NCBI GenBank assembly: GCA_041500865.1
Contig: JBGQMY010000003.1
Span: 6,728-70,727 of the forward strand
Reading direction: 5' to 3'
DNA from: Candidatus Micrarchaeia archaeon
Lineage (GTDB): Archaea > Micrarchaeota > Micrarchaeia > Anstonellales > J096
Length of the DNA stretch: 64,000 nt
Below, piece by piece: positions 5,278-49,607 of the stretch; position 1 is the first letter of the stretch, and each line of letters begins with the position of its first letter. Made by a program: the position numbers and the translations under genes. The notes under the pieces are model-generated. The model was not told the origin of the DNA. It did no database searches and saw only the letters and a program-made list of their open reading frames with translations.

Positions 5278-5413
5278 TGCCAAGGGGGGGACTCGAACCC
5301 CCGACCTCTAGATGGCCCAAAGCGTGCCTATCATCGCCGTTTTCCAACGGCTCAGCACTCACAAAAGCGTGTTTTATGAGTCTAGCGCTCTAAGCCGGCT
5401 GAGCTACCTTGGC
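5278..5413 (-). tRNA. tRNA-Met/CAT-anticodon tRNA with ~60-nt intron at canonical 37/38 position
   Basis: Minus strand reads GCCAAGG-TA-GCTCAGCCGGCTTAGAGC-G-CTAGA-CTCATAA-[intron]-TCTAG-AGGTC-GGGGGTTCGAGTCCCCC-CCTTGGC-A. Confidence 0.75.
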
Positions 5414-12790: not shown

Positions 12791-13050
12791 CCTAGGGTGC
12801 AAGCCCAAGTCATTCCGAACGCATTGGACGGCCTGTAGTTCGCGTTGACGTTCTGCCTGTTGTTGCCGTTGTTGTTGACGTTGCGGACCAGAAGGCCTCA
12901 AGAGTAACCCGTCTGCCACAATGGCACTTTCGTGCCAACACCGCCGCTTCACGCTTTCAATCCATGATTTACTCAATGTCGCGGCTGAATCCCATGTCTG
13001 GCTTTAACCAGCACTGCAGACAGGTGTGTGGCCTAGGCTTGCACCCTAGG
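12791..13050. repeat. 15-bp perfect inverted repeats (cctagggtgcaagcc / ggcttgcaccctagg) bracketing TR plus ~135-nt spacer
   Basis: 12791-12805 is the exact reverse complement of 13036-13050; could form a long-range stem enclosing the TR RNA. Confidence 0.5.
12809..12898 (-). repeat. DGR template repeat (TR)
   Basis: ~90 nt homologous to 13315..13404; coding-strand reads …CGC AAC GTC AAC AAC AAC GGC AAC AAC AGG CAG AAC GTC AAC GCG AAC TAC…; all differences from VR are at TR adenines. Confidence 0.75.
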
Positions 13051-13076: not shown

Positions 13077-13988
13077 TTAAAGCGCTTTCCCTACCGCATC
13101 CAGGAATTCCCTGATTGGCGCTACGATCTGGGCGTCGATTATGCCAGGCATCCTGCCAACAGCGCTTACAGCCCTATTATATGCGGCTTTCAGCTCATCA
13201 GCCGAGATGCCGGGCACTTTGATAATCGTCTCTTTTTCAGCCGGTTTTCCTGACTGAACATTAGAGGCAAGAAGCGCCTGGATTTTTTCGGTGTCCCCTT
13301 CGGGGACTTCCAACGCCACCCCGAACGCACCGGACGGCCCGAAGTACGCGTAGACGCCCTGCCTGCCGTAGCCGAGGTCGTCGACGACGCGGACCAGAAG
13401 GCCCACATATGAAGAACCATTCAGCCTCCAAAGATATCTTGCATCCGGGCTTTGCGGCACCTTGTCTCCATGCGGAACGCCTGTTTCCTTATGCGGCATG
13501 TACAAGCCATCAGGACCTGGGAATTCTGGAACCGGTATCAGCCTGTCTTTTGAAATGTCCAAAACCATTGAATCTCCGTCTTTCTGGAAATCTTTTGAGG
13601 TTAGACCCAGTGCCACAAGCGCAACGTTCTTTTCGCCCTTATAATCCCCTGTTGTCGGCAAAACTATCCTTGAACCGTCTCCTGCGGAAAAGACTATCTC
13701 CTTTCCCAGTCTAACGCCTGGCTTTTCATAGGCGATTGAGGCGTCAACAGCGAAAGGCGTCATTGGAACCAAGCTTCTCCATGTCGCTCCAACGTTAAGC
13801 GCAACATCCGCTGTGTTATGGGATATGACTAGGCAATTGGTTCCATGCACATTGTTGAATTCCTCAACTAAAGGATGGGCATCAAAAAGCTTTGTTGTTC
13901 CGCTGTTCCTTAGAATCAGTATGTTCTTCTTTTGTCCGTTAGCCTCTAACTTTATCAGTTCCTTTCCAGCAATTTGGATTTGTGACAT
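13077..13988 (-). CDS. DGR target protein (variable protein; uncharacterised family, paralog of 59364..60158)
   Basis: 303 aa; contains the VR at aa ~196-225 (…VRVVDDLGYGRQGVYAYFGPSGAFG…); adjacent to TR-RT on same strand. Confidence 0.75.
   Translation of the reverse strand: MSQIQIAGKELIKLEANGQKKNILILRNSGTTKLFDAHPLVEEFNNVHGTNCLVISHNTADVALNVGATWRSLVPMTPFAVDASIAYEKPGVRLGKEIVFSAGDGSRIVLPTTGDYKGEKNVALVALGLTSKDFQKDGDSMVLDISKDRLIPVPEFPGPDGLYMPHKETGVPHGDKVPQSPDARYLWRLNGSSYVGLLVRVVDDLGYGRQGVYAYFGPSGAFGVALEVPEGDTEKIQALLASNVQSGKPAEKETIIKVPGISADELKAAYNRAVSAVGRMPGIIDAQIVAPIREFLDAVGKAL
13293..13307 (-). promoter_or_regulatory. GC hairpin 7 nt downstream of VR 3' end (IMH-associated stem-loop)
   Basis: gtcccc-ttc-ggggac: 6-bp GC stem, 3-nt loop, positioned as in characterised DGRs. 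Confidence 0.5.
13315..13404 (-). repeat. DGR variable repeat (VR) inside target gene
   Basis: Matches TR except ~20 positions, each where TR coding strand has A (TR AAC -> VR GTC/GAC/CTC/TAC/GGC/TTC codons). Confidence 0.75.
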
Positions 13989-17224: not shown

Positions 17225-17324
17225 GGGCTCGTAGCTCAGTCGGTAGAGCGACGGTCTTATATGGCGCGTTCTAGCACAAACCTAAGTTAGCCGTAGGTCC
17301 TGGGTTCAAGTCCCAGCGGGCCCA
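17225..17324 (+). tRNA. intron-containing tRNA, apparent anticodon TAT (Ile)
   Basis: GGGCTCG-TA-GCTCAGTCGGTAGAGC-G-ACGGT-CTTATA-[~27-nt intron]-A-GCCGT-AGGTC-CTGGGTTCAAGTCCCAG-CGGGCCC-A. Confidence 0.7.
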
Positions 17325-27870: not shown

Positions 27871-27940
27871 GATTCAGTATTGAGAATAAACAAATATAAA
27901 ACAGTATGAAAAATGGATTTTGGCAATGAAAAAATGCCCC

Positions 27941-28351
27941 TTATTTGGCGCCATGCTCTTTGAGGAAGGCAATGGCCTTTTCTAGGGATTCATATCTTGG
28001 ATTTGGAATGCGCCTGTCATCCGGCTGCTCCGAACGCAAATGCTCAAGCTCGCGCAAGTTGCCAAGCGGTGTGCCGGCAGTGCAAATGGTTTTTGGGATG
28101 TGTAACAGGGCTTCTTTTGCATTCTCCAGCACGGTCATCTCTTCTTCATCCACGGCATTGGGGTCTGCCCCTTTCCGGATGAGGCACTCGACTTCCTTAT
28201 AATCGTAATTCTGGACTGCTTTAATCAGTTTCTTGTTTCTGTGATTCTCAACTACCGCCTTGAATTTCTCTAATATGCCGCGAGGACTGGGTTTGTACTG
28301 TTCATTAACCTGCCTGCCAATCTTGCTCGGCTCGACTACTGTGCCGTTCAT
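27941..28351 (-). CDS. small hypothetical protein with a single ankyrin-like repeat
   Basis: 136 aa; 'LIKAVQNYDYKEVECLIRKGADPNAVD'. Confidence 0.4.
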   Translation of the reverse strand: MNGTVVEPSKIGRQVNEQYKPSPRGILEKFKAVVENHRNKKLIKAVQNYDYKEVECLIRKGADPNAVDEEEMTVLENAKEALLHIPKTICTAGTPLGNLRELEHLRSEQPDDRRIPNPRYESLEKAIAFLKEHGAK

Positions 28352-28624: not shown

Positions 28625-29188
28625 TCACAAACCGGCGCATTCCGCAAAATCCAGGATAAACCGCTTATGCCCGATGCCGATTAAGCTTTCAAGCGGCTTT
28701 ATTGCATCCATGATTGCCACAACGCCCCTGTATCCGCGCGTTATCATATGACGCCTGGTTGTTTGCCAGTATTCTCTTCTTGCATTACCTTTGAAATTCG
28801 CGCCTTTGCTTAGCAGCAGCGCGAACGTTCTTGCATTCCCATGCGCAAAGGCCAGCATGAGCGCGGTTATGCCCTGGTCGTTTCTTGCATTGATTTTTGC
28901 GCCCCTTTCCAGCAGCATGGAAACCGTTTCCGTCCTTCCGTTGGATGAGGCGAACATCAGCGGGGTCGTGCCTGCAATGCTCCTTGACTCAATGCCGATT
29001 CCGGCCTTCAGCAGCCTCATTATCCTTTTGGTTTTGCCTGTCCTTGCAGATTCTCCCAGAATGTTTTCCAGCCGCTTTACCTTTGCATTTTTGGATTCCG
29101 CGTTTTCTTGGCCCAGCTTATGGGCGGCAAGAAAAGACGCAATTGACCTTGCTGCGCGGATTGCGCGCCCCGTTGCATTTATCTGCAT
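28625..29188 (-). CDS. ankyrin-repeat protein with C-terminal …FILDFAECAGL tail
   Basis: 187 aa, 3 ANK repeats. Confidence 0.75.
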   Translation of the reverse strand: MQINATGRAIRAARSIASFLAAHKLGQENAESKNAKVKRLENILGESARTGKTKRIMRLLKAGIGIESRSIAGTTPLMFASSNGRTETVSMLLERGAKINARNDQGITALMLAFAHGNARTFALLLSKGANFKGNARREYWQTTRRHMITRGYRGVVAIMDAIKPLESLIGIGHKRFILDFAECAGL

Positions 29189-30173: not shown

Positions 30174-30848
30174 CTACTGGCCTATGCAGCGCCTGAAATC
30201 CAGCAGGAATGCGGCAAATGCCTCTTTGCCAAACGGCTTTTGCAGGGATTCCCAAAAATCCAGGAGCACAATGTTGTTCCTTTTTGTATTTAATTCCGCC
30301 AGGCCGCGGGCATTGCGGCCGTCATCGTTCCTTGTGTCCAAATCAGCGCCATGCATGAGCAGGAGCCTGGCCGTTTCAATGCGGCCATGTATTGAAGTGT
30401 ACATGAGCAGGGTGTATTCTCCATGGCTCCTTGCATTTACGTCAGCCCCTTTTTCCAGCAGGAGCCTGGCGATGGCAGTATTTCCTGAACACGATGCATA
30501 CACGAGCGCGGTATAGCCGCAAATGCCCCTGATGTTCACGTCTGTTCCCTTTTCTATAAGGAATCTGGCTACTTCCGTGCATCCGCAATCCAATGCCCAC
30601 AAGAGAGCGGTTTGGCCGTGCTTGAATAAGATATTTGGGTTTGCGCCGGCTTCAACCAGCCGCGCGGCATTTGCAATATCTTCGGGCGCGTTGTTAAATG
30701 TCAATGCGGCCATTTCCCTGTTTAGGCTTTCAATCCTGACCGCATTGTCTGGCTCAAGCTTGCATTTATCTAATTGAATTGGCATTTTCGCATTTTGCGC
30801 ATGTCCCTGCATCTGCTCCTGGGCCATGGGCTTATTGTGCAAGAACAA
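30174..30848 (-). CDS. ankyrin-repeat protein with C-terminal …FLLDFRRCIGQ tail
   Basis: 224 aa, 4-5 ANK repeats. Confidence 0.75.
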   Translation of the reverse strand: MFLHNKPMAQEQMQGHAQNAKMPIQLDKCKLEPDNAVRIESLNREMAALTFNNAPEDIANAARLVEAGANPNILFKHGQTALLWALDCGCTEVARFLIEKGTDVNIRGICGYTALVYASCSGNTAIARLLLEKGADVNARSHGEYTLLMYTSIHGRIETARLLLMHGADLDTRNDDGRNARGLAELNTKRNNIVLLDFWESLQKPFGKEAFAAFLLDFRRCIGQ

Positions 30849-30901
30849 GGTTAATAATGATACTGGTTGGATATTCGGGCCCGAGGATTTAAATCAAGGG
30901 G

Positions 30902-31165
30902 TTACAGGCCTAGCCACTTTTCATATTCTTTATGCGTCCCTACAAAATAGAGCATCTTTGTTTTTGCAGATTCGTTTATCTTGTAGACAAGCCTGTACTG
31001 CCCTATCTCAGAAACATAGAAATCAAGCCCTTGCTTCAGATGCCTGGCTTGGATATCCTGCTGCAATTGGAGGATTTTCTTTGCCACCCTTTTTTTCATG
31101 CTGTTGTCAAGCCTTGAAAAATACCTGTCCCAGTCTGCATGAAAATTAAGGGCATAGGGGCTCAT
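30902..31165 (-). CDS. RelE/ParE-family type II toxin
   Basis: 87 aa; 'YRLVYKINESAKTKMLYFVGTHKEY' typical RelE/ParE core; 4-nt overlap with upstream antitoxin ORF. Confidence 0.65.
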   Translation of the reverse strand: MSPYALNFHADWDRYFSRLDNSMKKRVAKKILQLQQDIQARHLKQGLDFYVSEIGQYRLVYKINESAKTKMLYFVGTHKEYEKWLGL

Positions 31166-31443
31166 TCAAAAGCCTCTGGATATTTCCTGCGCACGTCCGC
31201 CAATGTCAGAACCCTTTTCTTTCCTGATTTTATTTCCTCGTCCATTTTCTGTAATTTTGCGGCTGCAAGCTCATCCAGGATTTCCTCGCTGGATTTCACA
31301 ACCCGGTATTCCTTCCCAAGCTCAAGTATGCCTGCGCGGACTGCCTCCGCCTTTGTCTTGAAGAAACCGGCTTCTACCAGCCTCTTCAGCGTATCCTCCA
31401 CAGAACCGTCCAGGTGTATTAATATGTCTGCCATTTCCACCAC
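31162..31443 (-). CDS. ribbon-helix-helix antitoxin
   Basis: 93 aa; N-terminal RHH-like 'ADILIHLDGSVEDTLKRLVEAGFFKTKAEAVRAGILEL'. Confidence 0.55.
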   Translation of the reverse strand: MVEMADILIHLDGSVEDTLKRLVEAGFFKTKAEAVRAGILELGKEYRVVKSSEEILDELAAAKLQKMDEEIKSGKKRVLTLADVRRKYPEAFE

Positions 31444-31574
31444 AATGTGGAATATATCAAATGGATATATAAATATATCATTTTGATAGATTTAAAATGC
31501 AAAAACGGGCCCGGGGCAGCCATGGCCGTGCGCGTCCATTTGTCCCAGGCCCTGCGCTGCAGAAGGTGATAAAC

Positions 31575-35850: not shown

Positions 35851-35948
35851 GGCTGTGATATGGGAAGCGGGGTTTTAAAAGCTTTTTAAATACAGAAATC
35901 AACTCAAACAACCACATTTTTAATACCTTCCATATATAGCCTTTAAAT

Positions 35949-38900
35949 ATGGCAGCCCTCAAAAACAAGCTACGAAGAGCAGTCGTCTACACGATGATTG
36001 CCGCTAACGCCGGTAATGCGAGCCCGGCATGGCTGCCGCGACATGAAAGATTGGGTGAAACAATGGCTGAAACAACCGTGAAGGGCGTTGAAAAGAAGGA
36101 CGAGGATGCCAGGCTCAAGAAGGGCGCGAAAATGCTTTATGACACGTACAAGAAGCTGTATCCCAAGGTCGATGAGAAACAATACTACATGTACCTTACG
36201 GCTTTCGGCAAAAAGCTGAACATATACAACGTGGAGGCCTTTAACACAAGCATCGGGGACGTAAGGAACATAGGGAATGGCCAGATGACCTTCATGGCGA
36301 TAAAAGAACTTGAAAGGCAGCGCTTGGAGAAGAAGGAGGCTGAAAGCTCCGGAAAGAGCTTTGTCCAGATGCAGAAGGAAAAAGAAACAAGGAGAGCGGA
36401 AACTGCCGGGCAAAGGGCAAAGAAAAGGGAGGCAGTCAAAGAAGAAGTTAGTAAGGTGATTACAGGCGGCGAGATAACGCCAGAGACCAAGCCTGCAAAG
36501 GTAACGGCTCCGGCCGTCATTGCCGGAAAAGGCATATTCGGGCAGACGCAAGGCGTTTTCCAGACGGAACAGAACGTCCTCAAAGGAAGCGACGGCAACG
36601 CAATGCTTGACAGCAGGGGCGCGGTCCAATACGCATATCCTTCAAACATGGCGTCGCTGCAGTCGCTTGGAGTGGTAGATTACAGCGCGCTGAAGGAAGC
36701 CACGGGAAATGATTTCATCGACCAGCTCAGGAAGAGCGAGGCAAAGGGCGGAACGGTCGAAGAAAGGGGCCAGAGGAGCTTCGAGACAACGGCAAGGATG
36801 ATAGGCGCGATAGTGCTTTACAACTCATTCGCATTCGCGGACAAGGCCGGGACAGTCAAGAAAAACCAGCTGAAGGATTATTGCGGCGACGACGGATACG
36901 CGGAAAACCTCGGGCGCGTGCTTTCGGCAAAGCCGCTGAGGAACCAGGGGCAGTTCATAGGCGAAGTGACGTCATTCATAGGGGCATACGTAAAGAACGG
37001 AAAGCTGACCGAGATAAACGGGGAAGGCAAGGACGAGAAGGGCAAGTCCAACGTGGGCATGTATGTCTATTCAATAGCCGCAATCGGCTCCGCATACACG
37101 CAGCGCGTGATAGGCGAAACGTTCGAGAGCCAGATGTCGTACCTCCAGGAAAGGAAGAAGGCCGCGGAGACGCAGAAGGCGGGGCTGGAAGGCCAGGTCA
37201 AGGAAGAGGCAAAGAGGCCCGCTGCCGCGCAGAGAGCCAAAAAATTGGCAGGTGAGGACGCGGAGACGCAGCTGAAAAAGGCTGATGCAGAAATACAGAG
37301 CATAACCGACATGACGGACAGCATCAGCAGCTACAGCTGGTACTACAAGAAGCCCATGACCGTGTCCGAGCTTTACAAAAGGCACAGGGACGAGGACAGG
37401 AAAAGGCTGACAAGCCTGAACGACTATGTCGGGGGCCTAAACATACCGCAAAGGATAAAGAGGCCGTTCCAGGACGCGCTTGAAAACGAAAAGACGCAGA
37501 TGGTGCTGCTCCAGATGGCCATAGAGGAGGCAAACCCCGAAGGGAGGATGACGCTTGCGGAGCTCAGGGAAAAAGGCAACATCTGGAGAAACTACAAGAC
37601 GCTTGTCACGCACAAACTCAAGGAGATAGCGACTTACAAGCTCAACAAGGGCCAAAGACTGATTTACGTGATGCTCAACAACAGGTACGGGGACCTCGTT
37701 GATGCCATAGAGGCAAAGCTGGGGCCTGAGGAGACGGCCAGGTTCATAGTGGACCTTGCAGACCCGTCGCAGGCAAAGAAGCAGGGCATGAGCTACGACG
37801 ACTACATAAGGGCCACGCTCAAGGATAAATGGATAAATGGAGGCATTTCCCCTGTAAAGGATGCAAAGGGCAGCATCCTAAAGGACCCAAGGGGCAACGT
37901 CATAAAAAGAGGCAGAAGCTGCCTTGATGATTACAGGAGCGGGTTCAACAGCAGCTACGGGCAAAAATCCGGCAGCCTGGACAGCCAAAGGTTTCCGGAC
38001 AAGCTGGTTGCGTCGCTTGTCATAGACCACAGGATAACGCAGGCGGAGCTGGACTTCCTGATTGCGAACAGGGGCGACATGAAGCCGGAGGAGGCGCTCA
38101 ACGCATTCAACGCCAAGCTCAACGACGCAAAGAAGAATTTCAACGAGAAGTCATATTCCACGGTAAAGCGCATGGTGGACGAGGCGCAGGGTCTCATAGG
38201 GTTTGACAAGGCGTATTATGAGGAGTTCAGGGACATAATACTTGTGAGGCTGGCCTTGATAGACATGACAAACCGGGCAACCCAGCGCACGTCAAGCCTT
38301 ACGCTGGACGGAATAATTGAAGGCAACCTGTCCGGGGTCAGGGCATTCGGGGCAAAGACGGCGGCGCTCGTTGCCAAGGTTGACGAGATTGCGCCTTTGG
38401 AGAAGATGCCGGACAACATAACCGGCGACGCCAAAGGGGTGCTGCTCCAGAGGGCGCGCACGCAGAGAATCAACGCGTACATAGAGCTTTTCAACAACGA
38501 GTTCTTCACGCTGAACGATGAAAGATATACCAAGATAACGGTGCAGAGGCTGAACGACTTCAAGCTCAGGCTTGACACGTGGGAGGAGGTGCTCAAAACG
38601 ATGAAGGAGGACGACCCGTACCACATCGCGAAGGACACTGTGCTCAGGGCCGGATGCATCCGGACGCTTGAGTCCATGAAGCAAAGGCTTGACGCAATCA
38701 TGAAGGAGGTCGGCGACAAAGGCATTGACCTGAGCGAAATAAAGGACCCTGGCGACAGGTTCCTGCTGGACCTTGTCATAAACGGAAGGGTCATCATCGC
38801 AGGAATCAACGGGTTCAGGTATTACGACAACGTCGCAACCGTGGACAGGCAGGGCTTCATACCCGTGATATTCTACTTCCTGAACAACATACAGCTCAAC

Positions 38901-41399
38901 GCCGAGGAGAACAGGTCGTACCTTGACCATGTGCTCAAAATGCCGGAAGGCAATGGCATAGACGTGTGGGAAGCGCCTGAAACAATAGCGCAGCAGCTGG
39001 AGACGGAAAGGAGCAACCGCATAGAAAACATGAGGTCGGAAGGCTGGAAGACGATAATGGGAAGCAGCGACAAGGCAACCGAGATGTACAGGATGCTGGG
39101 GTTCCAGCAGGCGTATGACTATTACTCCTCCTACCTGAAAAAGAACAAGGACAGCACATACGATTACAGCGACGCATCAGCCCTTGACGCTGAGCTGGAG
39201 CGGATTTTCGGAAAGGACATGCTCGACAACGTGAACCTGTCTGTAAAGTTCGCCATGAACATGTACACACCCAATAGGAATGTCTCCAAATACGACCTTG
39301 ACAGGCTGTCTACCCGGTTCAAGATGGTCCTGGCATCCAACCTTGTCCTGGAGGCGCCGTACTACGACTTGAGCAACACGGCAAAGCAGGGCTCCAAGAG
39401 CATTCCCGTTTCCGTGACAAAGAAGGACGGGGCAAAGGAGAGTGTCAATATCCAGTACCACGACAACATGGTGCAGAGATGGATAGAGGGCTACCGCAGC
39501 GCAAGGATTGGCGGGATATCCGTTGACAAGGACATGATTGAGGGCTTCATAGGCAGCATAGCGCAATGCAAATGGGCAGCGACGCTCAAGCCTGGCCAGT
39601 ATTCCATAACGTTCGAGAACGACCTGCACGAATTGAGGTCTTTCGACGTCACGGTAAGCAAGGTCGGTGGCGACATGAAAGGCGCGGCAGCCAACATAAA
39701 GATAGAGCCGATGTCCACGCTTGAGGACCTGCTGAAGACGCCCGGCGGATTCAGGGCGTACGAGGGCGACAGGATAGTCATGAGGAACAAGGCCGACAAC
39801 AGCGTGGCGCTGGCAACAAAGTCCAATTTCGGGGTTTTGATGGTGGCGAGCGCAAAGGTCGGCGGAAGGGGATTCGAGAATGCCGTAAACCAGGTGTCGC
39901 TGATGAACGACAACCTCGTGCCTGACGGAAGGCTTGAGGAGGGAACGCAGCCCGCATCGTTCTGGACAGGGCTGTACTTTGCCGTTACGAAGAAGGAGGC
40001 CATGTCATTCATCTCAAACAGGCAGATGGCGCTGTACGACATCGCGGCGACCTTCAGGCCAATCCGCGACATCAGGCCCGAGGTGCCTGTCAAGGTGACA
40101 AAAGTCCTTGGCAAGGAAACGCTGGACTTTGCGGCGCTCATAGGCGCCCCAAGCGATGCCGGAATATCCACCACGTGGGTGGATGCCGGCGGAGCGGTGC
40201 ACAACTGGTTCTCGGAGATGGCTGAAGGAAAACTGACAATAGACGAGAATGGGAACCTTTCTGCGCAGATAATGTCAAGGGCGACAGGAACGCAGCTCAT
40301 GCTCGGCGAGCTCAAAACGGAGCTTGACAGGCTTGGCTACACCGACGGCACGCCGCAAAGGGCCATCATACTGCAGCACCTGTTCGGCACAGGGCCGTAC
40401 AACGACAACATGGTAATCGAGGTCGTGGCGACCCAGCAGGGCAACAGGATATTCATAGTGACTAAAGGCGCGCAGAACATGGCACAGGCGGAGATAGGCA
40501 TTGAAATAGACAGGCAGACCATATCGGAAATGAGGTACGGATACCTCACCGACAGGCTAAGGCTCTTCATAGCGACGCAGACGCAGCTGAAGCTCGGGAA
40601 CGAGATAATAAACGTAAGGGTTGAGCTTGGGAAGACCGCAGCCGATTTCCAAAGCATGAAGAGGTTCAAGGACATCAAGACTGCGATAGTGAACGCATAC
40701 CTCAGCTCGAACATATTCGGCGCGGGATGGAGCACGGTGCTTTCTGAAAGCGGGAATGCGGTGACAGTGCAGCCGTACCTTGTGGCTTACCTGGAGCACA
40801 TGATGCCCAACGACCTGCAGAGGATAATCGAGACCGGCGGCGGAGTTTCCGGAATCCTGGAGACCGCAAATGCGGAATTCGGCGCCACCCCGCAGCTGAC
40901 AGGCATAACAGTCGGGCAAGGGGGGGACTGGATGGTAACCCCGAGCCTGAACCTGTACCAGAGATGGTTCACGGGAAGGCATTTTGACCTGTACCAGAGC
41001 GCTTCGGTGCACTACAGGTTCCCCACAGCCGGTCTCGTGGACAGGGTAAGCAAGGGGCATCTTGGGGGAACCTGGGGGGGTGGGGGGAACCTCGGATTCG
41101 ACTACATAATAGACAGGAACTGGAGGATGGGCCTTGGCGGAGGGTATGAATACGCCCCAATCTCCATACAGGCGCCTGTAAGCGTGTTCAGCTCCAGCGC
41201 CAGCATATCGTTCAGGAACAGGCTTTCGCTTGAGGTGATGGCCAACTACCAGCTGGACAAGGACTGGGGAACGGAGAACCTGCCTGTGCTGGGCCGCGGA
41301 GTCGTCGCAGGCAAGGCCGCGCTTGTCTACAACATCGGAAGGCTTGACTTCACCCCAAAGGAAAAGGGAACAGCAGCGAAGAAGGGCGGTAAGAAATGA
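35949..41399 (+). CDS. giant protein (1816 aa) of unknown function; Gly-rich C-terminal region
   Basis: Single uninterrupted ORF; possible RR-containing N-terminal signal (KLRRAVVYTMIAANAGNA); C-terminal 'GGTWGGGGNLGFDYIIDRNWRMGLGGGYEY'; stop overlaps start of next gene. Confidence 0.7.
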   Translation: MAALKNKLRRAVVYTMIAANAGNASPAWLPRHERLGETMAETTVKGVEKKDEDARLKKGAKMLYDTYKKLYPKVDEKQYYMYLTAFGKKLNIYNVEAFNTSIGDVRNIGNGQMTFMAIKELERQRLEKKEAESSGKSFVQMQKEKETRRAETAGQRAKKREAVKEEVSKVITGGEITPETKPAKVTAPAVIAGKGIFGQTQGVFQTEQNVLKGSDGNAMLDSRGAVQYAYPSNMASLQSLGVVDYSALKEATGNDFIDQLRKSEAKGGTVEERGQRSFETTARMIGAIVLYNSFAFADKAGTVKKNQLKDYCGDDGYAENLGRVLSAKPLRNQGQFIGEVTSFIGAYVKNGKLTEINGEGKDEKGKSNVGMYVYSIAAIGSAYTQRVIGETFESQMSYLQERKKAAETQKAGLEGQVKEEAKRPAAAQRAKKLAGEDAETQLKKADAEIQSITDMTDSISSYSWYYKKPMTVSELYKRHRDEDRKRLTSLNDYVGGLNIPQRIKRPFQDALENEKTQMVLLQMAIEEANPEGRMTLAELREKGNIWRNYKTLVTHKLKEIATYKLNKGQRLIYVMLNNRYGDLVDAIEAKLGPEETARFIVDLADPSQAKKQGMSYDDYIRATLKDKWINGGISPVKDAKGSILKDPRGNVIKRGRSCLDDYRSGFNSSYGQKSGSLDSQRFPDKLVASLVIDHRITQAELDFLIANRGDMKPEEALNAFNAKLNDAKKNFNEKSYSTVKRMVDEAQGLIGFDKAYYEEFRDIILVRLALIDMTNRATQRTSSLTLDGIIEGNLSGVRAFGAKTAALVAKVDEIAPLEKMPDNITGDAKGVLLQRARTQRINAYIELFNNEFFTLNDERYTKITVQRLNDFKLRLDTWEEVLKTMKEDDPYHIAKDTVLRAGCIRTLESMKQRLDAIMKEVGDKGIDLSEIKDPGDRFLLDLVINGRVIIAGINGFRYYDNVATVDRQGFIPVIFYFLNNIQLNAEENRSYLDHVLKMPEGNGIDVWEAPETIAQQLETERSNRIENMRSEGWKTIMGSSDKATEMYRMLGFQQAYDYYSSYLKKNKDSTYDYSDASALDAELERIFGKDMLDNVNLSVKFAMNMYTPNRNVSKYDLDRLSTRFKMVLASNLVLEAPYYDLSNTAKQGSKSIPVSVTKKDGAKESVNIQYHDNMVQRWIEGYRSARIGGISVDKDMIEGFIGSIAQCKWAATLKPGQYSITFENDLHELRSFDVTVSKVGGDMKGAAANIKIEPMSTLEDLLKTPGGFRAYEGDRIVMRNKADNSVALATKSNFGVLMVASAKVGGRGFENAVNQVSLMNDNLVPDGRLEEGTQPASFWTGLYFAVTKKEAMSFISNRQMALYDIAATFRPIRDIRPEVPVKVTKVLGKETLDFAALIGAPSDAGISTTWVDAGGAVHNWFSEMAEGKLTIDENGNLSAQIMSRATGTQLMLGELKTELDRLGYTDGTPQRAIILQHLFGTGPYNDNMVIEVVATQQGNRIFIVTKGAQNMAQAEIGIEIDRQTISEMRYGYLTDRLRLFIATQTQLKLGNEIINVRVELGKTAADFQSMKRFKDIKTAIVNAYLSSNIFGAGWSTVLSESGNAVTVQPYLVAYLEHMMPNDLQRIIETGGGVSGILETANAEFGATPQLTGITVGQGGDWMVTPSLNLYQRWFTGRHFDLYQSASVHYRFPTAGLVDRVSKGHLGGTWGGGGNLGFDYIIDRNWRMGLGGGYEYAPISIQAPVSVFSSSASISFRNRLSLEVMANYQLDKDWGTENLPVLGRGVVAGKAALVYNIGRLDFTPKEKGTAAKKGGKK

Positions 41400-43003
41400 G
41401 AATGCTGAAACTGGCGTTTGCGATTTGCCTGCTCGCCGGCGTTTCGCTGGCGCTGCAGTGGGGGGGAAGCGCGACCAGCAACGTAAGGTACGACGGCGGA
41501 AGCATAGCGACTTCCTGCATTGGCGAGCCAAGGCAGGACCCGTTCGACCTTTACGCCAACATACTGCATACGCTAACGGTCAACGCAAGCCTGACGCAGA
41601 ACGGCGTTGAGCCGGCCGAGTTTTCCTCAGGGCCGGCAAACCTGGACATAAGGGTGACGACGAACACCAGCATAGGCGCCATACTCGCGTCCTCATCGCT
41701 TAATTTCAACCAGAATGCGCAGCCTTCTCCTGCCGCAGCGAACCTTGCGTTTGACAATGCGGAATACAGCTACATAAGCAGCAAGTATCCGGTCTGCATA
41801 AACGAGGACCCCTCAAGGCCCGACGACAGGGGCGTGCATTACCTCAACTACATTTACGGCAGCGCAACGTGCAACCATGCAATGAGTGCCGCGGACGCAG
41901 TAACCGTCAATGTCGGATACAAGCCGTGCATGGCGGGGCCTGTCAGCGGCATGGGCAAGGGATACATGTACTGCACCGGCGGAACGCTCAAGGTCAATGG
42001 GCTGAACGCAGGCACGTTTTCATCCAGCCAGCAGTCATTCAGCACGACGGTAAATCTCGCAACAGGCACGACATCCATTCCCGTGTCAGTCACATACCAG
42101 TGCTACTTCGTTTTGGAAAAATACCTCAACACCGGGGACGTCCAGCCGATTGAACACCTGATATACCAGATGCCTGGCGGAGTGCCGATAACGCAGACTG
42201 TCAACATACCCATAAACAGGGTCAATCCGCCGCAAATCAACCTCGTGCCGTTCATAACGCTGAACAACACCAACTATTATACCGGGACGCATGTAACCGT
42301 AAACAAGGTCAATACGAAATTCGACATATCGTTCTTTGTCAACAGGACGGACAATCTCGTGCTGATAGAGACGCCATACCTGAACTGGTCAATAACGTCA
42401 ACGCCGCCCGAGCTAATCACCAGGACATACAGGGACTTCAAGCTCGTCCCTCCGCTCACTGTAGGGACGCCGCACCATCTGGTTCCGTCAGGCACAACGC
42501 CGCCCATAACAATAACGGTCTGCAGGCCAGGATTTGACACTGACACTATCACGCTGAACATCAACCAATGGAGGTCAATAATAGAGAGCAGCTACGACGA
42601 CAACAGCATAACAATAACGTTTGACTGCAGCAGCCTGGACAATCCCATGTGCACGTTCAACCCAAGCACCCTGATAACGTATCCTGGCCAGACGAAGATG
42701 ACGAACATGAGCTGCTACGACAAGAGGACTATGGAGCCCATGGACTGCCCCTCATACAGCGATGCGTCAATAACCCACGCAAACGGGGAATTTTCGAGCC
42801 ATTACCTACCCCTGGCATGGACGTATGACATCAGCGAGAATGCGACCAACCTGGTCAATGTAACCGCAATAGGAGGCACGAACCCTGACGAGGGGACTTA
42901 CAGCGACACTGTCACGGCGACGTTCCCTGGCAGCTACGTCCAGCCGTTCAGTTGCAAATTCAACCTTGAATGGGGAAGGCCCGACTGCAGGTATTACATG
43001 TAG
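41396..43003 (+). CDS. secreted Cys-rich, N-glycosylation-sequon-rich protein, translationally coupled to the giant ORF
   Basis: Signal peptide MRMLKLAFAICLLAGVSLALQW; ~20 Cys; >15 NxS/T sequons; ATGA overlap with 35949..41399. Confidence 0.7.
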   Translation: MRMLKLAFAICLLAGVSLALQWGGSATSNVRYDGGSIATSCIGEPRQDPFDLYANILHTLTVNASLTQNGVEPAEFSSGPANLDIRVTTNTSIGAILASSSLNFNQNAQPSPAAANLAFDNAEYSYISSKYPVCINEDPSRPDDRGVHYLNYIYGSATCNHAMSAADAVTVNVGYKPCMAGPVSGMGKGYMYCTGGTLKVNGLNAGTFSSSQQSFSTTVNLATGTTSIPVSVTYQCYFVLEKYLNTGDVQPIEHLIYQMPGGVPITQTVNIPINRVNPPQINLVPFITLNNTNYYTGTHVTVNKVNTKFDISFFVNRTDNLVLIETPYLNWSITSTPPELITRTYRDFKLVPPLTVGTPHHLVPSGTTPPITITVCRPGFDTDTITLNINQWRSIIESSYDDNSITITFDCSSLDNPMCTFNPSTLITYPGQTKMTNMSCYDKRTMEPMDCPSYSDASITHANGEFSSHYLPLAWTYDISENATNLVNVTAIGGTNPDEGTYSDTVTATFPGSYVQPFSCKFNLEWGRPDCRYYM

Positions 43004-44732: not shown

Positions 44733-46043
44733 TCAGAGGGAGTTTATCTTTCTGCTGAACTCCATCATCCTGGGGTCGCCGAGCAGGAACCCCTTCTTCA
44801 GCTCTGCCTTGATTGCCCTGAGGAACATTTTCGCCCCTGCCCTGTCCCTCCTTTTCTTTGCAAGCTCATAAGCCCTTTTTGTTATGGACTCGAAGTCCAG
44901 CGCTGGCGTTATCCTGTACATTGAGTTGCTGAGCAGGACCTTCCTTGCCGTCTTTAGCGCCTTTTTCTCCCTGCCATTGTCGGCTATCCTGAGATAGAGC
45001 GCGCGGGCGCCGGCTCCCAGGCCCAGCAAACCGATTACTGCAATGATTCCGTATGTTGCGTACCTGATTATCTTCTTTTCCGTAGCCAAGAACTTTGCAA
45101 ACCCTGAAGGCTCGGCATTCTTCGCAGGCTCTGCGGCTGCGACTGTTTGCTGGGCGGCATGGACGTGCCTTATTATTGATGCCGCATGATGCTCATGATG
45201 CTTCTTTTTGGCTTCCTTTATGATTTTTGTTATTTTTGCGGCTGCGGCATGCACCGGCCTTGGCTTCGGCTTGGCAGCAAAGGCGGGCTTGCTCGCCCTT
45301 GGCTGAGTCACCCTTGTGTTATCTGTCGGCAGGTTCTGCTTTGCAACTGCAGGCGCCTTTGGCTCTGCAATTGCAGGCTTTTGCGGAACTGCCGTCATGG
45401 AGCCGTTCCAAACGTGTTGCGTGTCGTTTGCAGTCGTGGTTGCAGGTTCTGCAGCCTGTGCGCCTGTACCTGAGCCGCAGTACTTGTCGTATGTGTTTTC
45501 AAGGCCGTCCATGACAACGAAAACCGAATTCGGGATGGACCTCAGGTTTGCGCTGGTCGAATCGCCGTTCACGTAGACCATATGAAGGACGAGGGTGCCG
45601 GGCGAAACGACCGGAACGCCCTTTCCCTTTATCTCGCCCACAACGTCACCAAGCAGAAGCAGGGACCTGCGGTTGAGGCCCTTTGCGCTGAAATAATCGT
45701 TTACCACGTCGTTTATCTGCGACGCATCGGTTGAATTGGAGAAAAGCCAGAGCAGGTTGTCCCTTGCCTTTGCCTCCCTTGCGGTGGGCTTTTGTATGCC
45801 AACGTCGCTGAAGATGGAGTCCACTGACCAGGTCCTTTCTGACTCTGATTTGGAGAAAAGCGAGGAAACGAGCTCCGCCTTGGACGTTGTGTCCGCAAGC
45901 GGCTCGGCAAAGGAAATGCTTTTTCCTATTGTCGGGCTTAGCGCAACAGCCATGCCGGTTGCTATGATTACTGATATCGGCACTCTTTTTTGGGCATATT
46001 TGCTAGCAGTGTTGTTTCTCCATACGCCTTCTGCCTTTACCAT
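44733..46043 (-). CDS. hypothetical type-I membrane protein (signal peptide, Ala-rich ectodomain, TM, conserved cytoplasmic tail)
   Basis: 436 aa; C-terminal ~70 aa similar to C-terminus of 46112..46870 (…DPRM…). Confidence 0.45.
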   Translation of the reverse strand: MVKAEGVWRNNTASKYAQKRVPISVIIATGMAVALSPTIGKSISFAEPLADTTSKAELVSSLFSKSESERTWSVDSIFSDVGIQKPTAREAKARDNLLWLFSNSTDASQINDVVNDYFSAKGLNRRSLLLLGDVVGEIKGKGVPVVSPGTLVLHMVYVNGDSTSANLRSIPNSVFVVMDGLENTYDKYCGSGTGAQAAEPATTTANDTQHVWNGSMTAVPQKPAIAEPKAPAVAKQNLPTDNTRVTQPRASKPAFAAKPKPRPVHAAAAKITKIIKEAKKKHHEHHAASIIRHVHAAQQTVAAAEPAKNAEPSGFAKFLATEKKIIRYATYGIIAVIGLLGLGAGARALYLRIADNGREKKALKTARKVLLSNSMYRITPALDFESITKRAYELAKKRRDRAGAKMFLRAIKAELKKGFLLGDPRMMEFSRKINSL

Positions 46044-46111: not shown

Positions 46112-46870
46112 TCAGACGGACTTCAGCCCGGCATAAAAGTCCCTCATCCGAGGGTCATAAGTGCCGAATGCCGTGGTAAGCTCCTTTTCAACGTCCATGA
46201 GGAATGACCTGGCTTCCTTCCTGTTTTTCACTGTCCTGGCTATCGCAATGGCCCTGGCTGTTATCGCTTCAACAGTGAGCCCCGGCTTTTTCTTGGACGG
46301 AACGGCGATCAGCTTCTGGGACATGATGACATGCCTTGCCCTCCTGAGCGCGATGTTCTCCTTGAAGCGCCTTACTATGCCCTCGAACCTTGTCTTGGAC
46401 CTTGGCTTGGCACGCCTTGGCTTCTTCCGCCTGGATATTGCATATGCCGCGGCTGCAGCCCCTATAATCCCCGTGCCTGCAAGGATGCCCTTCCATGGCA
46501 GTTTCTTGGCAGGCTTTTTCCCATGCCCGGCATCATTTGAGATGGCAAGCGCGTCTCCAAGTTCATTGCTCTTTTCAGCCTTGGCGGCCATATGCATTGC
46601 CCTGGCACATCTGCATTTGGCATGCGCCTTGGCCTTGGCCAGCCCCCCTGGGCTCTTTTGTTCCTCCTTGTTTTTGCCCAAGACCTTTTTTGGGATGGCC
46701 TGCGCTGAGGAATAGCTGGAATCGTGCATCGGGCTCTGTTTTGCCGCATATGCGCATCCGCTTATGGATGACCCGAATGCCAGCGCAAGCGTAGCGGCCA
46801 ATGCAAGCGGAAAATTGATTTTCCTGGCCTGTGTTTTGGCATACGTTTTAGCATCAATTTTATTAGCCAT
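46112..46870 (-). CDS. hypothetical membrane protein, paralog (C-terminal domain) of 44733..46043
   Basis: 252 aa; signal peptide + TM 'ILAGTGIIGAAAAAYAI' + shared C-terminal '…TAFGTYDPRMRDFYAGL'. Confidence 0.45.
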   Translation of the reverse strand: MANKIDAKTYAKTQARKINFPLALAATLALAFGSSISGCAYAAKQSPMHDSSYSSAQAIPKKVLGKNKEEQKSPGGLAKAKAHAKCRCARAMHMAAKAEKSNELGDALAISNDAGHGKKPAKKLPWKGILAGTGIIGAAAAAYAISRRKKPRRAKPRSKTRFEGIVRRFKENIALRRARHVIMSQKLIAVPSKKKPGLTVEAITARAIAIARTVKNRKEARSFLMDVEKELTTAFGTYDPRMRDFYAGLKSV

Positions 46871-46908: not shown

Positions 46909-47670
46909 CTATTCCTGAAGCCAGATGGGCTTTCCGTCCTTCATATCTATGGACGCGGCCTGGCTTGCAAAAAGATTAATCATGTCCGGGCTGTTGATTT
47001 GCCTGGCATAGCCAAGCGCATCCATGCCTGCCTTGTCTATTGCCTTGGCATCAGCGCCCTTGCTTACCAGGAAAGCGCATGTTTCGCTGAATCCCCTCAT
47101 TGCTGCCCAGATGAGCGCGGTCCTGCCCCATACAGTATCACTTGCGTTTATGCTTGCGCCATTTTCAATAAGCAGGCTGCATACGCCAATCCTGCCCAGG
47201 TATGCCGCCCACATGAGCGGGGTCCTGCCTGACTTGTCTGTTGCATTGACGCTTGCGCCTTTCTTTATCAGGAGTGCACAGGTGCTGGCTCTCCCACGGT
47301 ATGCTGATTCCATGAGCGGGGTGATGCCATTCACGTCAGTCGTTTCCATGTCCGCGCCATTTTCCAGCAGGAATGCGCATATCCTTTTGTTGCCTGCGCC
47401 CGCAGACCCCATGAGCGCGGTTTTGCCGCATTCGCTCTTTGCATTGACGTCCGCGCCAGCCTTGATGAGCCGCAGGATTTCTTCTGCATTTTTCGAGCCC
47501 TGCCATTGGAATTTTGCGTTCCATGCCGCATTGAGGAGTTTTTTGTCCAGTTCCTCCTGCAGGTCAGTGCGGAGCTTGCTTGGTTTGTCTGGCTCAGGCT
47601 TCATCTTTTTGTCAAAAGGCGGCTTTCTGTTAGTTGCACTGCGCCTTTGTTTCTCCGTTTTCTGCGCCAT
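46909..47670 (-). CDS. ankyrin-repeat protein
   Basis: 253 aa, about 5 ANK repeats; first of three tandem ANK genes with duplicated promoter regions. Confidence 0.75.
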   Translation of the reverse strand: MAQKTEKQRRSATNRKPPFDKKMKPEPDKPSKLRTDLQEELDKKLLNAAWNAKFQWQGSKNAEEILRLIKAGADVNAKSECGKTALMGSAGAGNKRICAFLLENGADMETTDVNGITPLMESAYRGRASTCALLIKKGASVNATDKSGRTPLMWAAYLGRIGVCSLLIENGASINASDTVWGRTALIWAAMRGFSETCAFLVSKGADAKAIDKAGMDALGYARQINSPDMINLFASQAASIDMKDGKPIWLQE

Positions 47671-47702: not shown

Positions 47703-48452
47703 TTATGCGGGGCCCGGCGACTGCCGCAAGCTGGCAATATAGGGCTTTCTTTTGGCCGGACCCATGGACGCGGCGCGCCTAAGCAGGTCAACCGTGCCTG
47801 TATGCTCGTTTTCCTGTGCCCATACGTATGCGGTCATGCCCCCATTGTCCTTTATGCTGATGTCTGCGCCTTTTTCAAGCAGCAGCATTGCCGTTTCCCT
47901 GTATCCGATTTCAGCGGCATATGTAAGCGCGGTCCTGCCGAAGTTGTCCCTTGCATCCACGTTTGCGCCTTTCCCAATCAGCAATGCGCAAATGCCGGCC
48001 TGTCCGCCAAATGCCGCATGCATCAGTGCAGTCCTTTCAAGGCTGTCTGTTGCGTCCACGATTGCGCCTTTCCCAATCAGCAGGGCGCATATGGCCATCA
48101 GCCCTGACGATGCGGCGTGCATGAGGGCAGTTCCGCCGACGTTGTCCTTTGCATCGATGGCTGCCGCGTTGTCAATCAGCATTATGCATGTCTCGGCATG
48201 CCTCCGCTGTGCGGAAAGCATCAGCGCGGTCATGCCCCTGCCGTCTACTGCATCTGCCTGCGCGCCCTGTTCCAGCAGCATTTTGGCCTTGCCTGTCTCG
48301 CCGTCCATGGCCGCCTGCAGAAGTTCCAAGCCCAGCCTTTTCTGCCGCCTGTTGGCGGGCCTCTTGCACCCATCCGCCTCTGGCTTGAAAAATGCCCTTT
48401 CCGGCTTTTTTTCGCTTTTTGGGATTCCGAATTTACCCAATGTGAGGAGCAT
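47703..48452 (-). CDS. ankyrin-repeat protein
   Basis: 249 aa, about 5 ANK repeats. Confidence 0.75.
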   Translation of the reverse strand: MLLTLGKFGIPKSEKKPERAFFKPEADGCKRPANRRQKRLGLELLQAAMDGETGKAKMLLEQGAQADAVDGRGMTALMLSAQRRHAETCIMLIDNAAAIDAKDNVGGTALMHAASSGLMAICALLIGKGAIVDATDSLERTALMHAAFGGQAGICALLIGKGANVDARDNFGRTALTYAAEIGYRETAMLLLEKGADISIKDNGGMTAYVWAQENEHTGTVDLLRRAASMGPAKRKPYIASLRQSPGPA

Positions 48453-48533: not shown

Positions 48534-49607
48534 TTATCTGGTTGCCCACTTATAGATTTCAACGCCCAGGAGAAACTGAGGCGTTGCGCCGCTGCTATCT
48601 ATCGCGTTTTCGTCCGCCCCATTTTTCACAAGGAATTTGTATACTTTCCTGTTCATTCCAAAAACGGTTTCTGCGGCATAGTGCAGTGCTGTCCTGCCTT
48701 CCTTGTCGCCCATATCAATAAACTTTTTCACATTCCCGCCGGCTTCAGCATATTTTTGTATGAGGAGGTTGCAGATTAAAGTCCTGCCTGGCAACGCAGG
48801 AATGGCTGCGGCATGGTGCAGGGATGTCCGGCCGTCATTGCTTTTTGCGGCAATCAGCTTCTTTATGTCCCCTCCGGATTTTGCGTATTCTTTTATAAGA
48901 AACGCGCAGGTTTTTATGCTTCCGTAAGCTGCGGCATACATGAGCGGGGTGTTGCCGCAGTTGTCCGCTGCGTTCAGGTCGGCGCCATTTTCAACCAGAA
49001 TCTCGCAGGTTTCTGTGTACCCGTAGCATGTTGATGCTGCAGTTATGAGCGCGGTTTCACCGTATTCGTTTCTCGCATTCACGTCAGCGCCGTTATCAAT
49101 CAGCAGATTGCATGTCTCGGGATTACGGGCTGCAGCATATATGAGCGGAGTGTTGCCGAACTTGTCCCTTGCGTCCACATCCGCCCCGGCTTTCAGAAAA
49201 GTCTCAATCCCTGCAGAGTCACAAAAAAATGTGTTGGTTATAGCCTCATCAAGAAGCATGCTGTCCAACCGCGCCTGTTCCATCTTGGAAATCGCCGGTT
49301 TCGCATCTGCTGCGGCCTTCCTTTGGCTTTTGTTTTTCTTGGAATAGCAATTCAGGACTTTTATGCAGTTTGCCAATTTTCTCTGCGCCATTTCCAAGCT
49401 AATGTCATTCCAGCAGCCTCCGCACGCCAGCGCGGCTGCGAGAATTCCGGGCATTACCCACGCCGGAATGCGGATTCCGATTTTTTTATTGGCGGCTGTT
49501 GGGTTATCGGCTGCGTCCTTTGCCTTTCTCGTTATCATGCATATTTGATTTTCGCTGTTTTTTGCGCCATCCGCTGCCTTTGCCAAAAACGGCTTTTCTG
49601 CTGCCAT
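48534..49607 (-). CDS. ankyrin-repeat protein
   Basis: 357 aa, about 7 ANK repeats (…GNTPLMYAAAYGSIKTCAFLI…). Confidence 0.75.
   Translation of the reverse strand: MAAEKPFLAKAADGAKNSENQICMITRKAKDAADNPTAANKKIGIRIPAWVMPGILAAALACGGCWNDISLEMAQRKLANCIKVLNCYSKKNKSQRKAAADAKPAISKMEQARLDSMLLDEAITNTFFCDSAGIETFLKAGADVDARDKFGNTPLIYAAARNPETCNLLIDNGADVNARNEYGETALITAASTCYGYTETCEILVENGADLNAADNCGNTPLMYAAAYGSIKTCAFLIKEYAKSGGDIKKLIAAKSNDGRTSLHHAAAIPALPGRTLICNLLIQKYAEAGGNVKKFIDMGDKEGRTALHYAAETVFGMNRKVYKFLVKNGADENAIDSSGATPQFLLGVEIYKWATR

Follow-up and report, generated by a model that had tools for sequence, protein, structure and literature searches.

A Co-Inherited Gene Pair of Micrarchaeota with a Predicted Outer-Membrane-Type Beta-Barrel

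We analyzed a 64,000-nt stretch of DNA from a Candidatus Micrarchaeia archaeon (GCA_041500865.1, contig JBGQMY010000003.1, positions 6,728-70,727 of the forward strand), called the window from here on, and describe two of its genes, A and B, which follow one another on the forward strand and overlap by four nucleotides. The window is archaeal and belongs to the Micrarchaeota (DPANN) clade. Comparison of this locus with its relatives shows that A and the N-terminal half of B form a unit of ~6 kb that has been replaced between close relatives. The C-terminal end of the very large protein A is predicted to fold as a beta-barrel of the outer-membrane type, and B has the profile of an exported protein. 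We see about an even chance that A and B are the two subunits of a membrane-spanning envelope complex that determines specificity. If the structural prediction holds, the novelty would lie in the context, an outer-membrane-type barrel being present in a kind of protein and of organism for which there is no precedent.

Conservation and replacement of the A/B pair

An earlier note on this DNA had reported a giant open reading frame (ORF) that runs into a 535-aa ORF through an ATGA overlap, and the coordinates of both are confirmed here. The pair and its upstream region, which separates A from the gene for the replication factor C (RFC) small subunit, comprise the following:

35949..41399, + strand: gene A; 1816 aa, ATG start, 202 kDa, isoelectric point (pI) 8.8, 4 Cys, non-repetitive, no transmembrane helix
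41396..43003, + strand: gene B; 535 aa, pI 4.9, S/T/N-rich (29%), 14 Cys, 8 NxS/T sequons, all-beta
41396-41399, + strand: ATGA stop/start overlap of A and B, read in the sequence
35851..35948, no strand: divergent promoter region between the RFC small subunit (- strand) and A; 98 nt, four conserved AT-rich boxes
~35916-35925: box TTTTTAATA, ~28 nt upstream of the ATG of A
~35886-35895: box TTTTTAAATA, on the RFC side, other strand

A homolog of B lies directly after A in 8 of 8 loci, and because the pair is kept throughout and dN/dS against the closest relative is 0.23 for A and 0.25 for B, both can be taken as real genes. The proposal that they form a dedicated gene pair is borne out by this conservation and by their co-inheritance. 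The 4-nt overlap, which would couple the translation of B to that of A, is also found in L001, L002, L004, L005, and L009, while the two genes are spaced by an 18-nt gap in L003 and a 12-nt gap in L006. The order of the neighborhood is conserved as well, running from an Fe-hydrogenase-like gene and a small ORF through RFC, A, B, and orf156 to the histidyl-tRNA synthetase gene (HisRS).

Neither protein has a match in Pfam, NCBIfam, PHROGs, or PADLOC, and nothing significant was retrieved from the PDB sequences with either single sequences or family profiles, in agreement with the earlier statement that both lack known domains. An exhaustive HMMER search with the A family profile against 1.84 billion representative proteins matched 12 proteins, two of which are spurious repeat matches, leaving only ~10 relatives of A. 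Among these homologs, P0002 is 82-83% identical to A (per BLASTP and MAFFT), P0003 is 39-43% identical, and P0005 and P0020 are 28-34% identical, with P0004 and P0012 together representing a split form. Pattern scans of genomes and metagenomes yielded only two additional loci, L008 and L007, the latter on the same contig as L003. L003 comes from a Lac Pavin sediment metagenome-assembled genome (MAG) labeled Candidatus Micrarchaeota (NCBI JAPLWW010000060), and L002, which carries P0020, lies on a 306-kb contig. Our best reading, held as a whole with confidence near the midpoint, is that A/B occurs only in a small clade of Micrarchaeota from freshwater and sediment.

The four AT-rich boxes between RFC and A (TTTTTAAATA, CACATTTTTAA, TTCCATATATA, and TTTAAATATGGC) are invariant in a five-locus alignment although the A proteins are only 34-43% identical. 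Judging from archaeal promoter geometry, TTTTTAATA is likely the TATA box of a leaderless or short-leader A mRNA, and TTTTTAAATA is likely the TATA box of RFC. The intergenic region as a whole probably serves as a compact archaeal promoter in both directions, and the A mRNA would be leaderless.

The evidence for replacement comes from identities that are incongruent across the locus. For the window copy, the values are:

RFC: L008 97%, L002 97%, L001 85%, L003 77%
A: L008 83%, L001 43%, L003 43%, L002 34%
B N-half (residues 1-245): L001 60%, L003 55%, L002 37%
B C-half: L002 68%, L003 41%

When the window is set against L002 alone, RFC is 97% identical and HisRS and orf156 are each 86% identical, as compared to 34% for A and 54% for B as a whole. 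RFC groups the window with L008 and L002, whereas A and the N-half of B make L002 the most distant copy. A sliding window of nucleotide identity to L002 stays at ~0.9 throughout the 98 intergenic nt and for ~100 nt into A, then drops to 0.3-0.55 from ~36,150 to ~42,100 (~0.35-0.53 within the N-half of B), and reaches 0.67-0.79 in the C-half of B and 0.82-0.90 in the right flank. The resulting boundaries and the two halves of B are:

36050..36150, no strand: left cassette boundary, where identity to L002 falls from ~0.9 to ~0.45
~42,100-42,130, no strand: right cassette boundary, mid-B
41456..42130, + strand: variable N-terminal half of B, residues ~21-245, inherited with A
42131..43000, + strand: conserved Cys-rich C-terminal half of B, residues ~246-535, which follows the species signal

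Between relatives that carry the same allele (L008, L009), dS is 0.40 for A and B, compared to 0.30-0.52 for the flanks, so at synonymous sites A does not outpace its surroundings. Together, the incongruent identities, the boundary profile, and the dS values indicate that one genus-level clade contains deeply diverged alleles of the ~6-kb unit (A and the N-half of B) side by side and that these are exchanged through homologous recombination. An exchange pattern of this kind is typical of loci that set cell-cell or virus-cell recognition specificity.

It is also typical of defense and mobile loci for a cassette to be replaced between close relatives, and the two proteins are orphans, so we considered whether A/B could be part of an integrated virus, another mobile element, or an anti-virus defense island. 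This explanation strikes us as highly improbable. The position of A/B on the chromosome is fixed between RFC and HisRS in every recovered genome, with flanks diverging down to ~72-77%, and the locus is always present, with no presence/absence variation. In addition, the gene lists showed neither an integrase nor a tRNA-flanked structure, and no match was found in PHROGs, PADLOC, IMG/VR, or GenBank phages.

The predicted C-terminal barrel and the remainder of A

To model the C-terminal part of A, AlphaFold2 (AF2) was run on residues 1040-1816 with a 10-sequence alignment, giving a mean predicted local distance difference test score (pLDDT) of 66.9. Two features lie at the end of the modeled region:

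40557..41348, + strand: residues 1537-1800, a 12-14-stranded outer-membrane-type beta-barrel predicted by AF2
41349..41396, + strand: Lys-rich C-terminal tail (FTPKEKGTAAKKGGKK), conserved, with a family consensus ending in KKGGKK

In residues 1537-1800, the means of 10-residue pLDDT blocks are mostly 70-83, with dips to 46 and 62. AF2 places 12-14 long antiparallel strands in this region, which in the prediction amounts to a closed antiparallel barrel (at least eight long strands). When the A model was searched against the PDB with Foldseek, only membrane barrels were returned, the best target TM-score being 0.54 for the barrel of EspP.

Several properties of the sequences agree with this fold. 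Independently of AF2, the faces of the strands alternate, one being ~0.7 hydrophobic or aromatic and the other ~0.3, and the 10-member family alignment displays an h.h.h pattern with aromatic columns at the strand ends; the beta-periodicity of A is strongest at residues 1705-1764. Across the 10 members, four turns (TAN, TGRH, DRN, and RNR) connect the last eight strands; their lengths of 3, 4, 3, and 2-3 residues hardly vary (standard deviation 0-0.4), and they are net basic (30 K+R, 7 D+E). These turns alternate with four indel-rich loops (standard deviation of length 1.5-4.3) that are net acidic (33 K+R, 46 D+E). The last strand ends in ...YNIGRLDF, and F1801 is followed by a 15-aa Lys-rich tail (TPKEKGTAAKKGGKK). 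This tail shares its side of the barrel with the short basic turns and across the members contains 52 K+R and 6 D+E. The earlier note had pointed to a Gly-rich C-terminal segment of A, and this was well seen, with 17% Gly in residues 1701-1800 and 28% Gly+Pro in residues 1701-1750. As part of a predicted outer-membrane-type barrel, this segment would be the most informative part of A.

The weak Pfam matches of the C-terminal domain are to outer-membrane barrel families only, namely PF03797, PF13505 (E ~0.009), DUF3575, and DUF5686. For PF03797, which was matched by 2 of 10 members, the cut-off is 26 bits and the score obtained is 15.9 (E 0.012; the best member has 0.009). Matches to OmpW retrieved by phmmer (E 0.2-0.4) vanish when family profiles are used and were kept only as weak compositional support. 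Seemingly "standalone" barrel proteins of ~300 aa (P0013-P0016) were considered as an indication of an autonomous domain and rejected, being gene fragments at contig edges; three such C-terminal proteins were traced to fragments of this kind. On the strength of the model, we would assign the C-terminus of A to the outer-membrane barrel class by fold and to no family by sequence. No description of an archaeal barrel of this kind was found in the literature searched.

One could argue that the barrel is not embedded in a membrane or is an AlphaFold artefact, and that A, as a large scaffold or non-enzymatic structural protein of the cytoplasm, has only its operon in common with a secreted B. The alignment is indeed shallow, no significant sequence homology links A to any barrel family, and A combines a cytoplasm-like composition and a weak signal with the absence of a transmembrane helix. 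However, the alternation of fixed turns and variable loops, the dyad hydrophobicity, and the aromatic strand ends are found in the alignment itself and do not depend on AF2. Moreover, the strict pairing, coupling, and co-inheritance of A with the N-half of B would be hard to explain if A were inside, B outside, and nothing spanned the membrane between them. We consider this explanation rather doubtful.

Upstream of the barrel, A can be divided into three parts:

35949..36038, + strand: conserved N-terminal motif, residues 1-30 (MAALKNKLRRAVVYTMIAANAGNASPAWLP); basic n-region, weakly hydrophobic stretch of 9-12 aa, small-residue c-region
36039..39002, + strand: N-module, residues ~31-1018; K/E-rich, helix-prone composition, cytoplasm-like; a separate gene in L003
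39090..40556, + strand: middle module, residues ~1048-1536; mixed alpha/beta (AF2); start of the second gene in L003

The N-terminal motif appears to be a marginal Sec/Tat-like signal or docking peptide. Its n-region has a charge of +4, and its hydrophobic core is weak: the best 10-residue Kyte-Doolittle hydropathy mean (KD10) is 1.25-1.84 (1.47 in A), which ranks 22nd of 51 ORFs. A possible RR-type signal had been proposed for A, an interpretation that does not hold up well given this weak core and an RR pair that is not conserved, reading RLRT in P0003 and RIRS in P0004. The first 30 residues are near-identical in P0020 (28-34% identical overall) and were therefore also considered as a strongly constrained targeting signal. 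This was rejected because the stretch lies to the left of the recombination breakpoint, where the flanks are ~90% identical, so that its near-identity mostly reflects linkage.

In residues 28-1040, charged residues make up 30% and S+T+N 16%, with 0.49 sequons in every 100 aa, a composition that is indistinguishable from that of RFC, HisRS, and other cytoplasmic proteins of the window. Over all of A, the sequon density is at background (~0.5 per 100 aa), the strongest 19-residue hydropathy window reaches 1.53 with no transmembrane helix, and no internal repeats were found. With no repeats, background sequons, and a cytoplasm-like first ~1000 residues, the idea of A as a typical adhesin is not supported.

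In the middle module, the means of 10-residue pLDDT blocks range from 27 to 84, and a disordered stretch is located at model residues 288-333. Residues ~1197-1292 (window ~39537-39824) gave a weak repeated match (E 1e-6, 5 repeats) to P0017 and P0018, which are bacterial cadherin-like or VCBS-type repeat proteins with repeats of ~95 aa and have the motif (R/D)SFD(V/F)TV in common with A. We did not accept this match as homology; the segment may be a single small Ig-like element.

The boundary between the N-module and the middle module was placed with the help of L003, where A is represented by two genes, P0004 (N-half, 1279 aa) and P0012 (C-half, 770 aa). The junction at 10044-10051 (equivalent to window ~39000-39090) reads GAGATGTGActATG, stop, 2 nt, ATG, with ~30 residues missing, and corresponds to A residues ~1018/1048. 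The split marks a module boundary of A, and it is either a natural two-subunit version or an assembly frameshift; it is seen in a single assembly. The earlier note had named a splitting of the giant ORF in independent assemblies as a result that would speak against it; this occurs in one MAG, that of L003, and all other full-length copies are intact.

Protein B and the proposed envelope complex

Export of B is indicated by its N-terminus:

41396..41455, + strand: signal peptide of B (MRMLKLAFAICLLAGVSLAL); KD10 2.66, conserved in homologs

The clear signal peptide that had been attributed to B is confirmed by this strongly hydrophobic N-terminus, and the cleavage site is likely near the SLA/LQ junction. 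Two counts given for B earlier have to be lowered: there are 14 cysteines rather than ~20, and 8 NxS/T sequons rather than more than 15. Thirteen of the cysteines are in the mature protein and 11 are invariant in five homologs, seven of the invariant ones falling in the C-half (C376, C411, C419, C440, C451, C520, and C531). The sequon density of ~1.5 per 100 aa is ~3-fold the window mean of 0.45. B also contains only 13% charged residues alongside its 29% S+T+N, has no C-terminal transmembrane helix or anchor and no internal repeats, and ends in a conserved RPDCRYYM. An export-type profile is common to all B homologs, and by these features B looks like an exported, disulfide-rich archaeal glycoprotein.

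Since B is of the export type and the bulk of A is cytoplasm-like, a picture with both proteins on the surface is not supported, and a membrane complex spanned by the barrel fits better. The cell-surface module suggested earlier is therefore retained in part: B has an exported-type profile, a membrane part of A is predicted, and the cassette fits host or virus interaction, but A is not a typical adhesin.

In the arrangement we propose, the last ~265 residues of A would fold as a 12-14-stranded transmembrane-type barrel, with the short basic turns and the Lys-rich tail on one face and the long variable acidic loops on the other. B would be exported via Sec, be N-glycosylated and rich in disulfides, and fold as a beta-sandwich, its synthesis kept in step with that of A by the ATGA overlap. 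A and the N-half of B are inherited as a unit, which homologous recombination has replaced between close relatives, with breakpoints ~100 nt into A and mid-B, and their linkage suggests that the two probably contact each other. The variable head of B would then probably sit on the acidic loop face of the barrel, its conserved Cys-rich half probably binding an invariant component of the envelope, and the large N-terminal mass of A (~1500 residues) would probably stay on the basic-turn face. The complex is probably held in a lipid membrane by its barrel, and the barrel may serve as a pore in that membrane, which could be the cell's own, a second archaeal membrane, or that of the host. The complex would probably determine the specificity of cell-cell (host) contact or serve as a virus receptor, and a cassette swapped between near-identical genomes is the type of locus expected to set host or virus specificity, which makes A/B a concrete candidate.

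Several points weigh against an envelope complex of this kind. The evidence is computational only, and the family is shallow. The barrel comes from one AF2 model on only 10 sequences with the modest mean pLDDT given above, PDB sequence profile searches find nothing, the structure model of B is poor (pLDDT 43), and the contact between A and B is deduced from linkage. Omega is 0.23-0.25 for A and B, compared to 0.05-0.10 for housekeeping neighbors, and a scan of A/B in 100-codon windows found none with omega >0.4, so direct positive selection is not shown. The marginal N-terminal signal of A and its cytoplasm-like first ~1000 residues leave the route of the barrel to a membrane unexplained, and archaea are not known to have a beta-barrel assembly machinery (BAM/Omp85). 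Finally, cultivated Micrarchaeota are reported to have one membrane and an S-layer (bioRxiv 10.1101/2021.04.28.441871; PMC11329633), which leaves no obvious membrane for a barrel of the outer-membrane type.

The layout of A, with a signal-like N-terminus, a long middle part, and a C-terminal barrel, would also suit an autotransporter-like protein that is exported via its N-terminal signal, inserts its barrel into an outer archaeal membrane, and displays a passenger of ~1500 residues as an adhesin, with B as an accessory surface protein. The sub-threshold PF03797 match is in keeping with this, and PMC8871954 and bioRxiv 10.1101/2021.04.28.441871 cite an earlier description of ARMAN-type cells as diderm. 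Nevertheless, we consider such a role unlikely. The PF03797 score of 15.9 bits is below its cut-off of 26, and the part of the passenger that was modeled (residues 1040-1536) is alpha/beta rather than a beta-helix, with residues 1-1040 helix-prone by composition. Residues 28-1040 are cytoplasm-like in composition and sequon density, unlike B; the weak signal contains a non-conserved RR pair; the chain end is not aromatic, as the 15-aa Lys-rich tail follows F1801; and cultivated Micrarchaeota have an S-layer and no outer membrane.

As one large and one smaller co-transcribed envelope gene, with B acidic and glycosylation-prone, A/B could further be likened to the two-component S-layer SlaA/SlaB of Sulfolobales. 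We find this very hard to sustain, given that the S-layer protein of Micrarchaeota is a ~101-kDa PF05123 protein (bioRxiv 10.1101/2021.04.28.441871) and neither A nor B matches PF05123. A is basic (pI 8.8), K/E-rich, and sequon-poor, B lacks a membrane-anchoring helix, and the family (~10 A members in 1.84 billion proteins) is too rare for a phylum-wide wall component. The likeness of A/B to SlaA/SlaB and to PF05123 S-layer proteins is thus limited to the pairing of a large and a small co-transcribed archaeal envelope gene and to an acidic, sequon-rich B.

Turning back to the envelope complex, we compared the predicted barrel with known systems. Among its closest known counterparts are monomeric 12-14-stranded bacterial outer-membrane channels (CymA 4d5b, OmpG 2f1c, KdgM 4pr7, and FadL 1t16). 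The identity to these is only 6-12%, with no significant sequence or profile match, and A differs from them in being archaeal, in carrying the barrel as the tail of an 1816-aa protein followed by a Lys-rich extension, and in having a basic turn side. Compared to type Va autotransporters (PF03797; Hbp, BrkA, NalP, and EspP), A matches below the gathering score, the modeled passenger part is not a beta-helix, and the passenger is cytoplasm-like. The chain end of A also lacks the aromatic BAM beta-signal, and A has an obligatory coupled partner gene; archaea are not known to have BAM. The exopolysaccharide secretins BcsC, PgaA, and PelB, which offer an architectural analogy, combine a large alpha-helical N-terminal region with a C-terminal porin. 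In contrast, A has no TPR or other repeats, its fold scores against these are below those for 14-strand porins, and no polysaccharide synthase genes were found near A/B. For two-partner secretion (TpsB/TpsA), neither an Omp85-type 16-strand barrel with POTRA nor a TPS-domain cargo was found.

Two further systems offer looser analogies. The A barrel model has a Foldseek match to 7vcf_F, which is presumably linked to chloroplast Toc159-family receptors. In members of the Toc159 family, a large cytosolic domain is joined to a membrane beta-barrel domain at the C-terminus, and the composition of A and its basic turn face suggest a similar plan, with a large soluble N-terminal mass on the synthesis side and a C-terminal barrel as anchor. 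Unlike Toc159, A has no GTPase domain, and there is no sequence relationship. The Myxococcus TraA/TraB outer-membrane exchange system is a two-gene operon. One product, a secreted and Cys-rich recognition protein, is polymorphic and selects partners through its variable head; it works with a barrel-containing membrane partner in contact-dependent membrane fusion and exchange. A/B may resemble it in being a two-gene operon for a variable Cys-rich secreted protein and a barrel-containing partner. However, Pfam finds no PA14, OmpA, or MYXO-CTERM domain in A/B, the genes differ in order and size, and the ~1500-aa N-terminal region of A has no counterpart.

Transmembrane beta-barrels are taken to be characteristic of the outer membranes of bacteria and of the organelles that descend from these. 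A predicted outer-membrane-type barrel in a DPANN symbiont would accordingly point either to a second lipid membrane in some Micrarchaeota or to a new membrane context, the organism's own membrane or that of its host. DPANN archaea are unable to make their own lipids and many metabolites. In a bolder version, A would be a genuine transmembrane beta-barrel of a monoderm archaeon without BAM, placed in its own cytoplasmic membrane or in the host membrane, and A/B would serve as the allele-specific gate of a DPANN-host conduit for lipids or metabolites. If it were in the organism's own membrane, the cytoplasm would hold the ~1500-aa N-terminal mass together with the basic turns and the KKGGKK tail, and the acidic variable loops and B would be outside. 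We regard this version as a long shot. Should it be true, A/B would be the first case of a beta-barrel membrane protein system that originated in archaea, and also the first of such a barrel residing in a membrane other than an outer membrane.

Other features of the window

Two tRNA genes of unusual length were found by Rfam and missed by ARAGORN; both presumably contain introns, which is consistent with the archaeal origin of the window:

5278-5413, - strand: tRNA gene, 136 nt
17225-17324, + strand: tRNA gene, 100 nt

Close to the A/B locus, an orphan 436-aa ORF adjoins HisRS at 44733-46043 (- strand) and is hydrophobic in stretches close to its N-terminus and ~100 residues before its C-terminus. 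It is 50% identical to its ortholog in L002, compared to the 86% of HisRS, and is thus another rapidly evolving gene of the envelope type, bordering the locus. A 252-aa ORF at 46112-46870 has a similar layout; the two were considered as paralogs, which BLASTP does not support (E 2).

Five ankyrin-repeat proteins are encoded in the 64 kb, a density that is unusual for an archaeon and reminiscent of symbiont effectors:

28625-29188, - strand: ankyrin-repeat protein
30174-30848, - strand: ankyrin-repeat protein
46909-47670, - strand: ankyrin-repeat protein
47703-48452, - strand: ankyrin-repeat protein
48534-49607, - strand: ankyrin-repeat protein

At the positions of the first two, L008 and L009 have no ankyrin gene: the stretches 27,888-28,187, 28,779-29,078, and 30,279-31,478 have no aligned counterpart in L008, and the sole ORF at this place in L009 is one of 105 aa. 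The ankyrin gene content therefore varies between strains.

An ORF at 5819-6661 (- strand) with a lipoprotein-like signal (…MFSFGC) and 14.6% cysteine may encode a secreted Cys-rich protein or be a spurious antisense ORF. Lastly, Rfam detected an RT-16 RNA (RF03019) at 12899-13050 (- strand) with 62.4 bits against a gathering score of 50. It adjoins an ORF at 13077-13988 (- strand) and could be a retron- or reverse-transcriptase-associated RNA.

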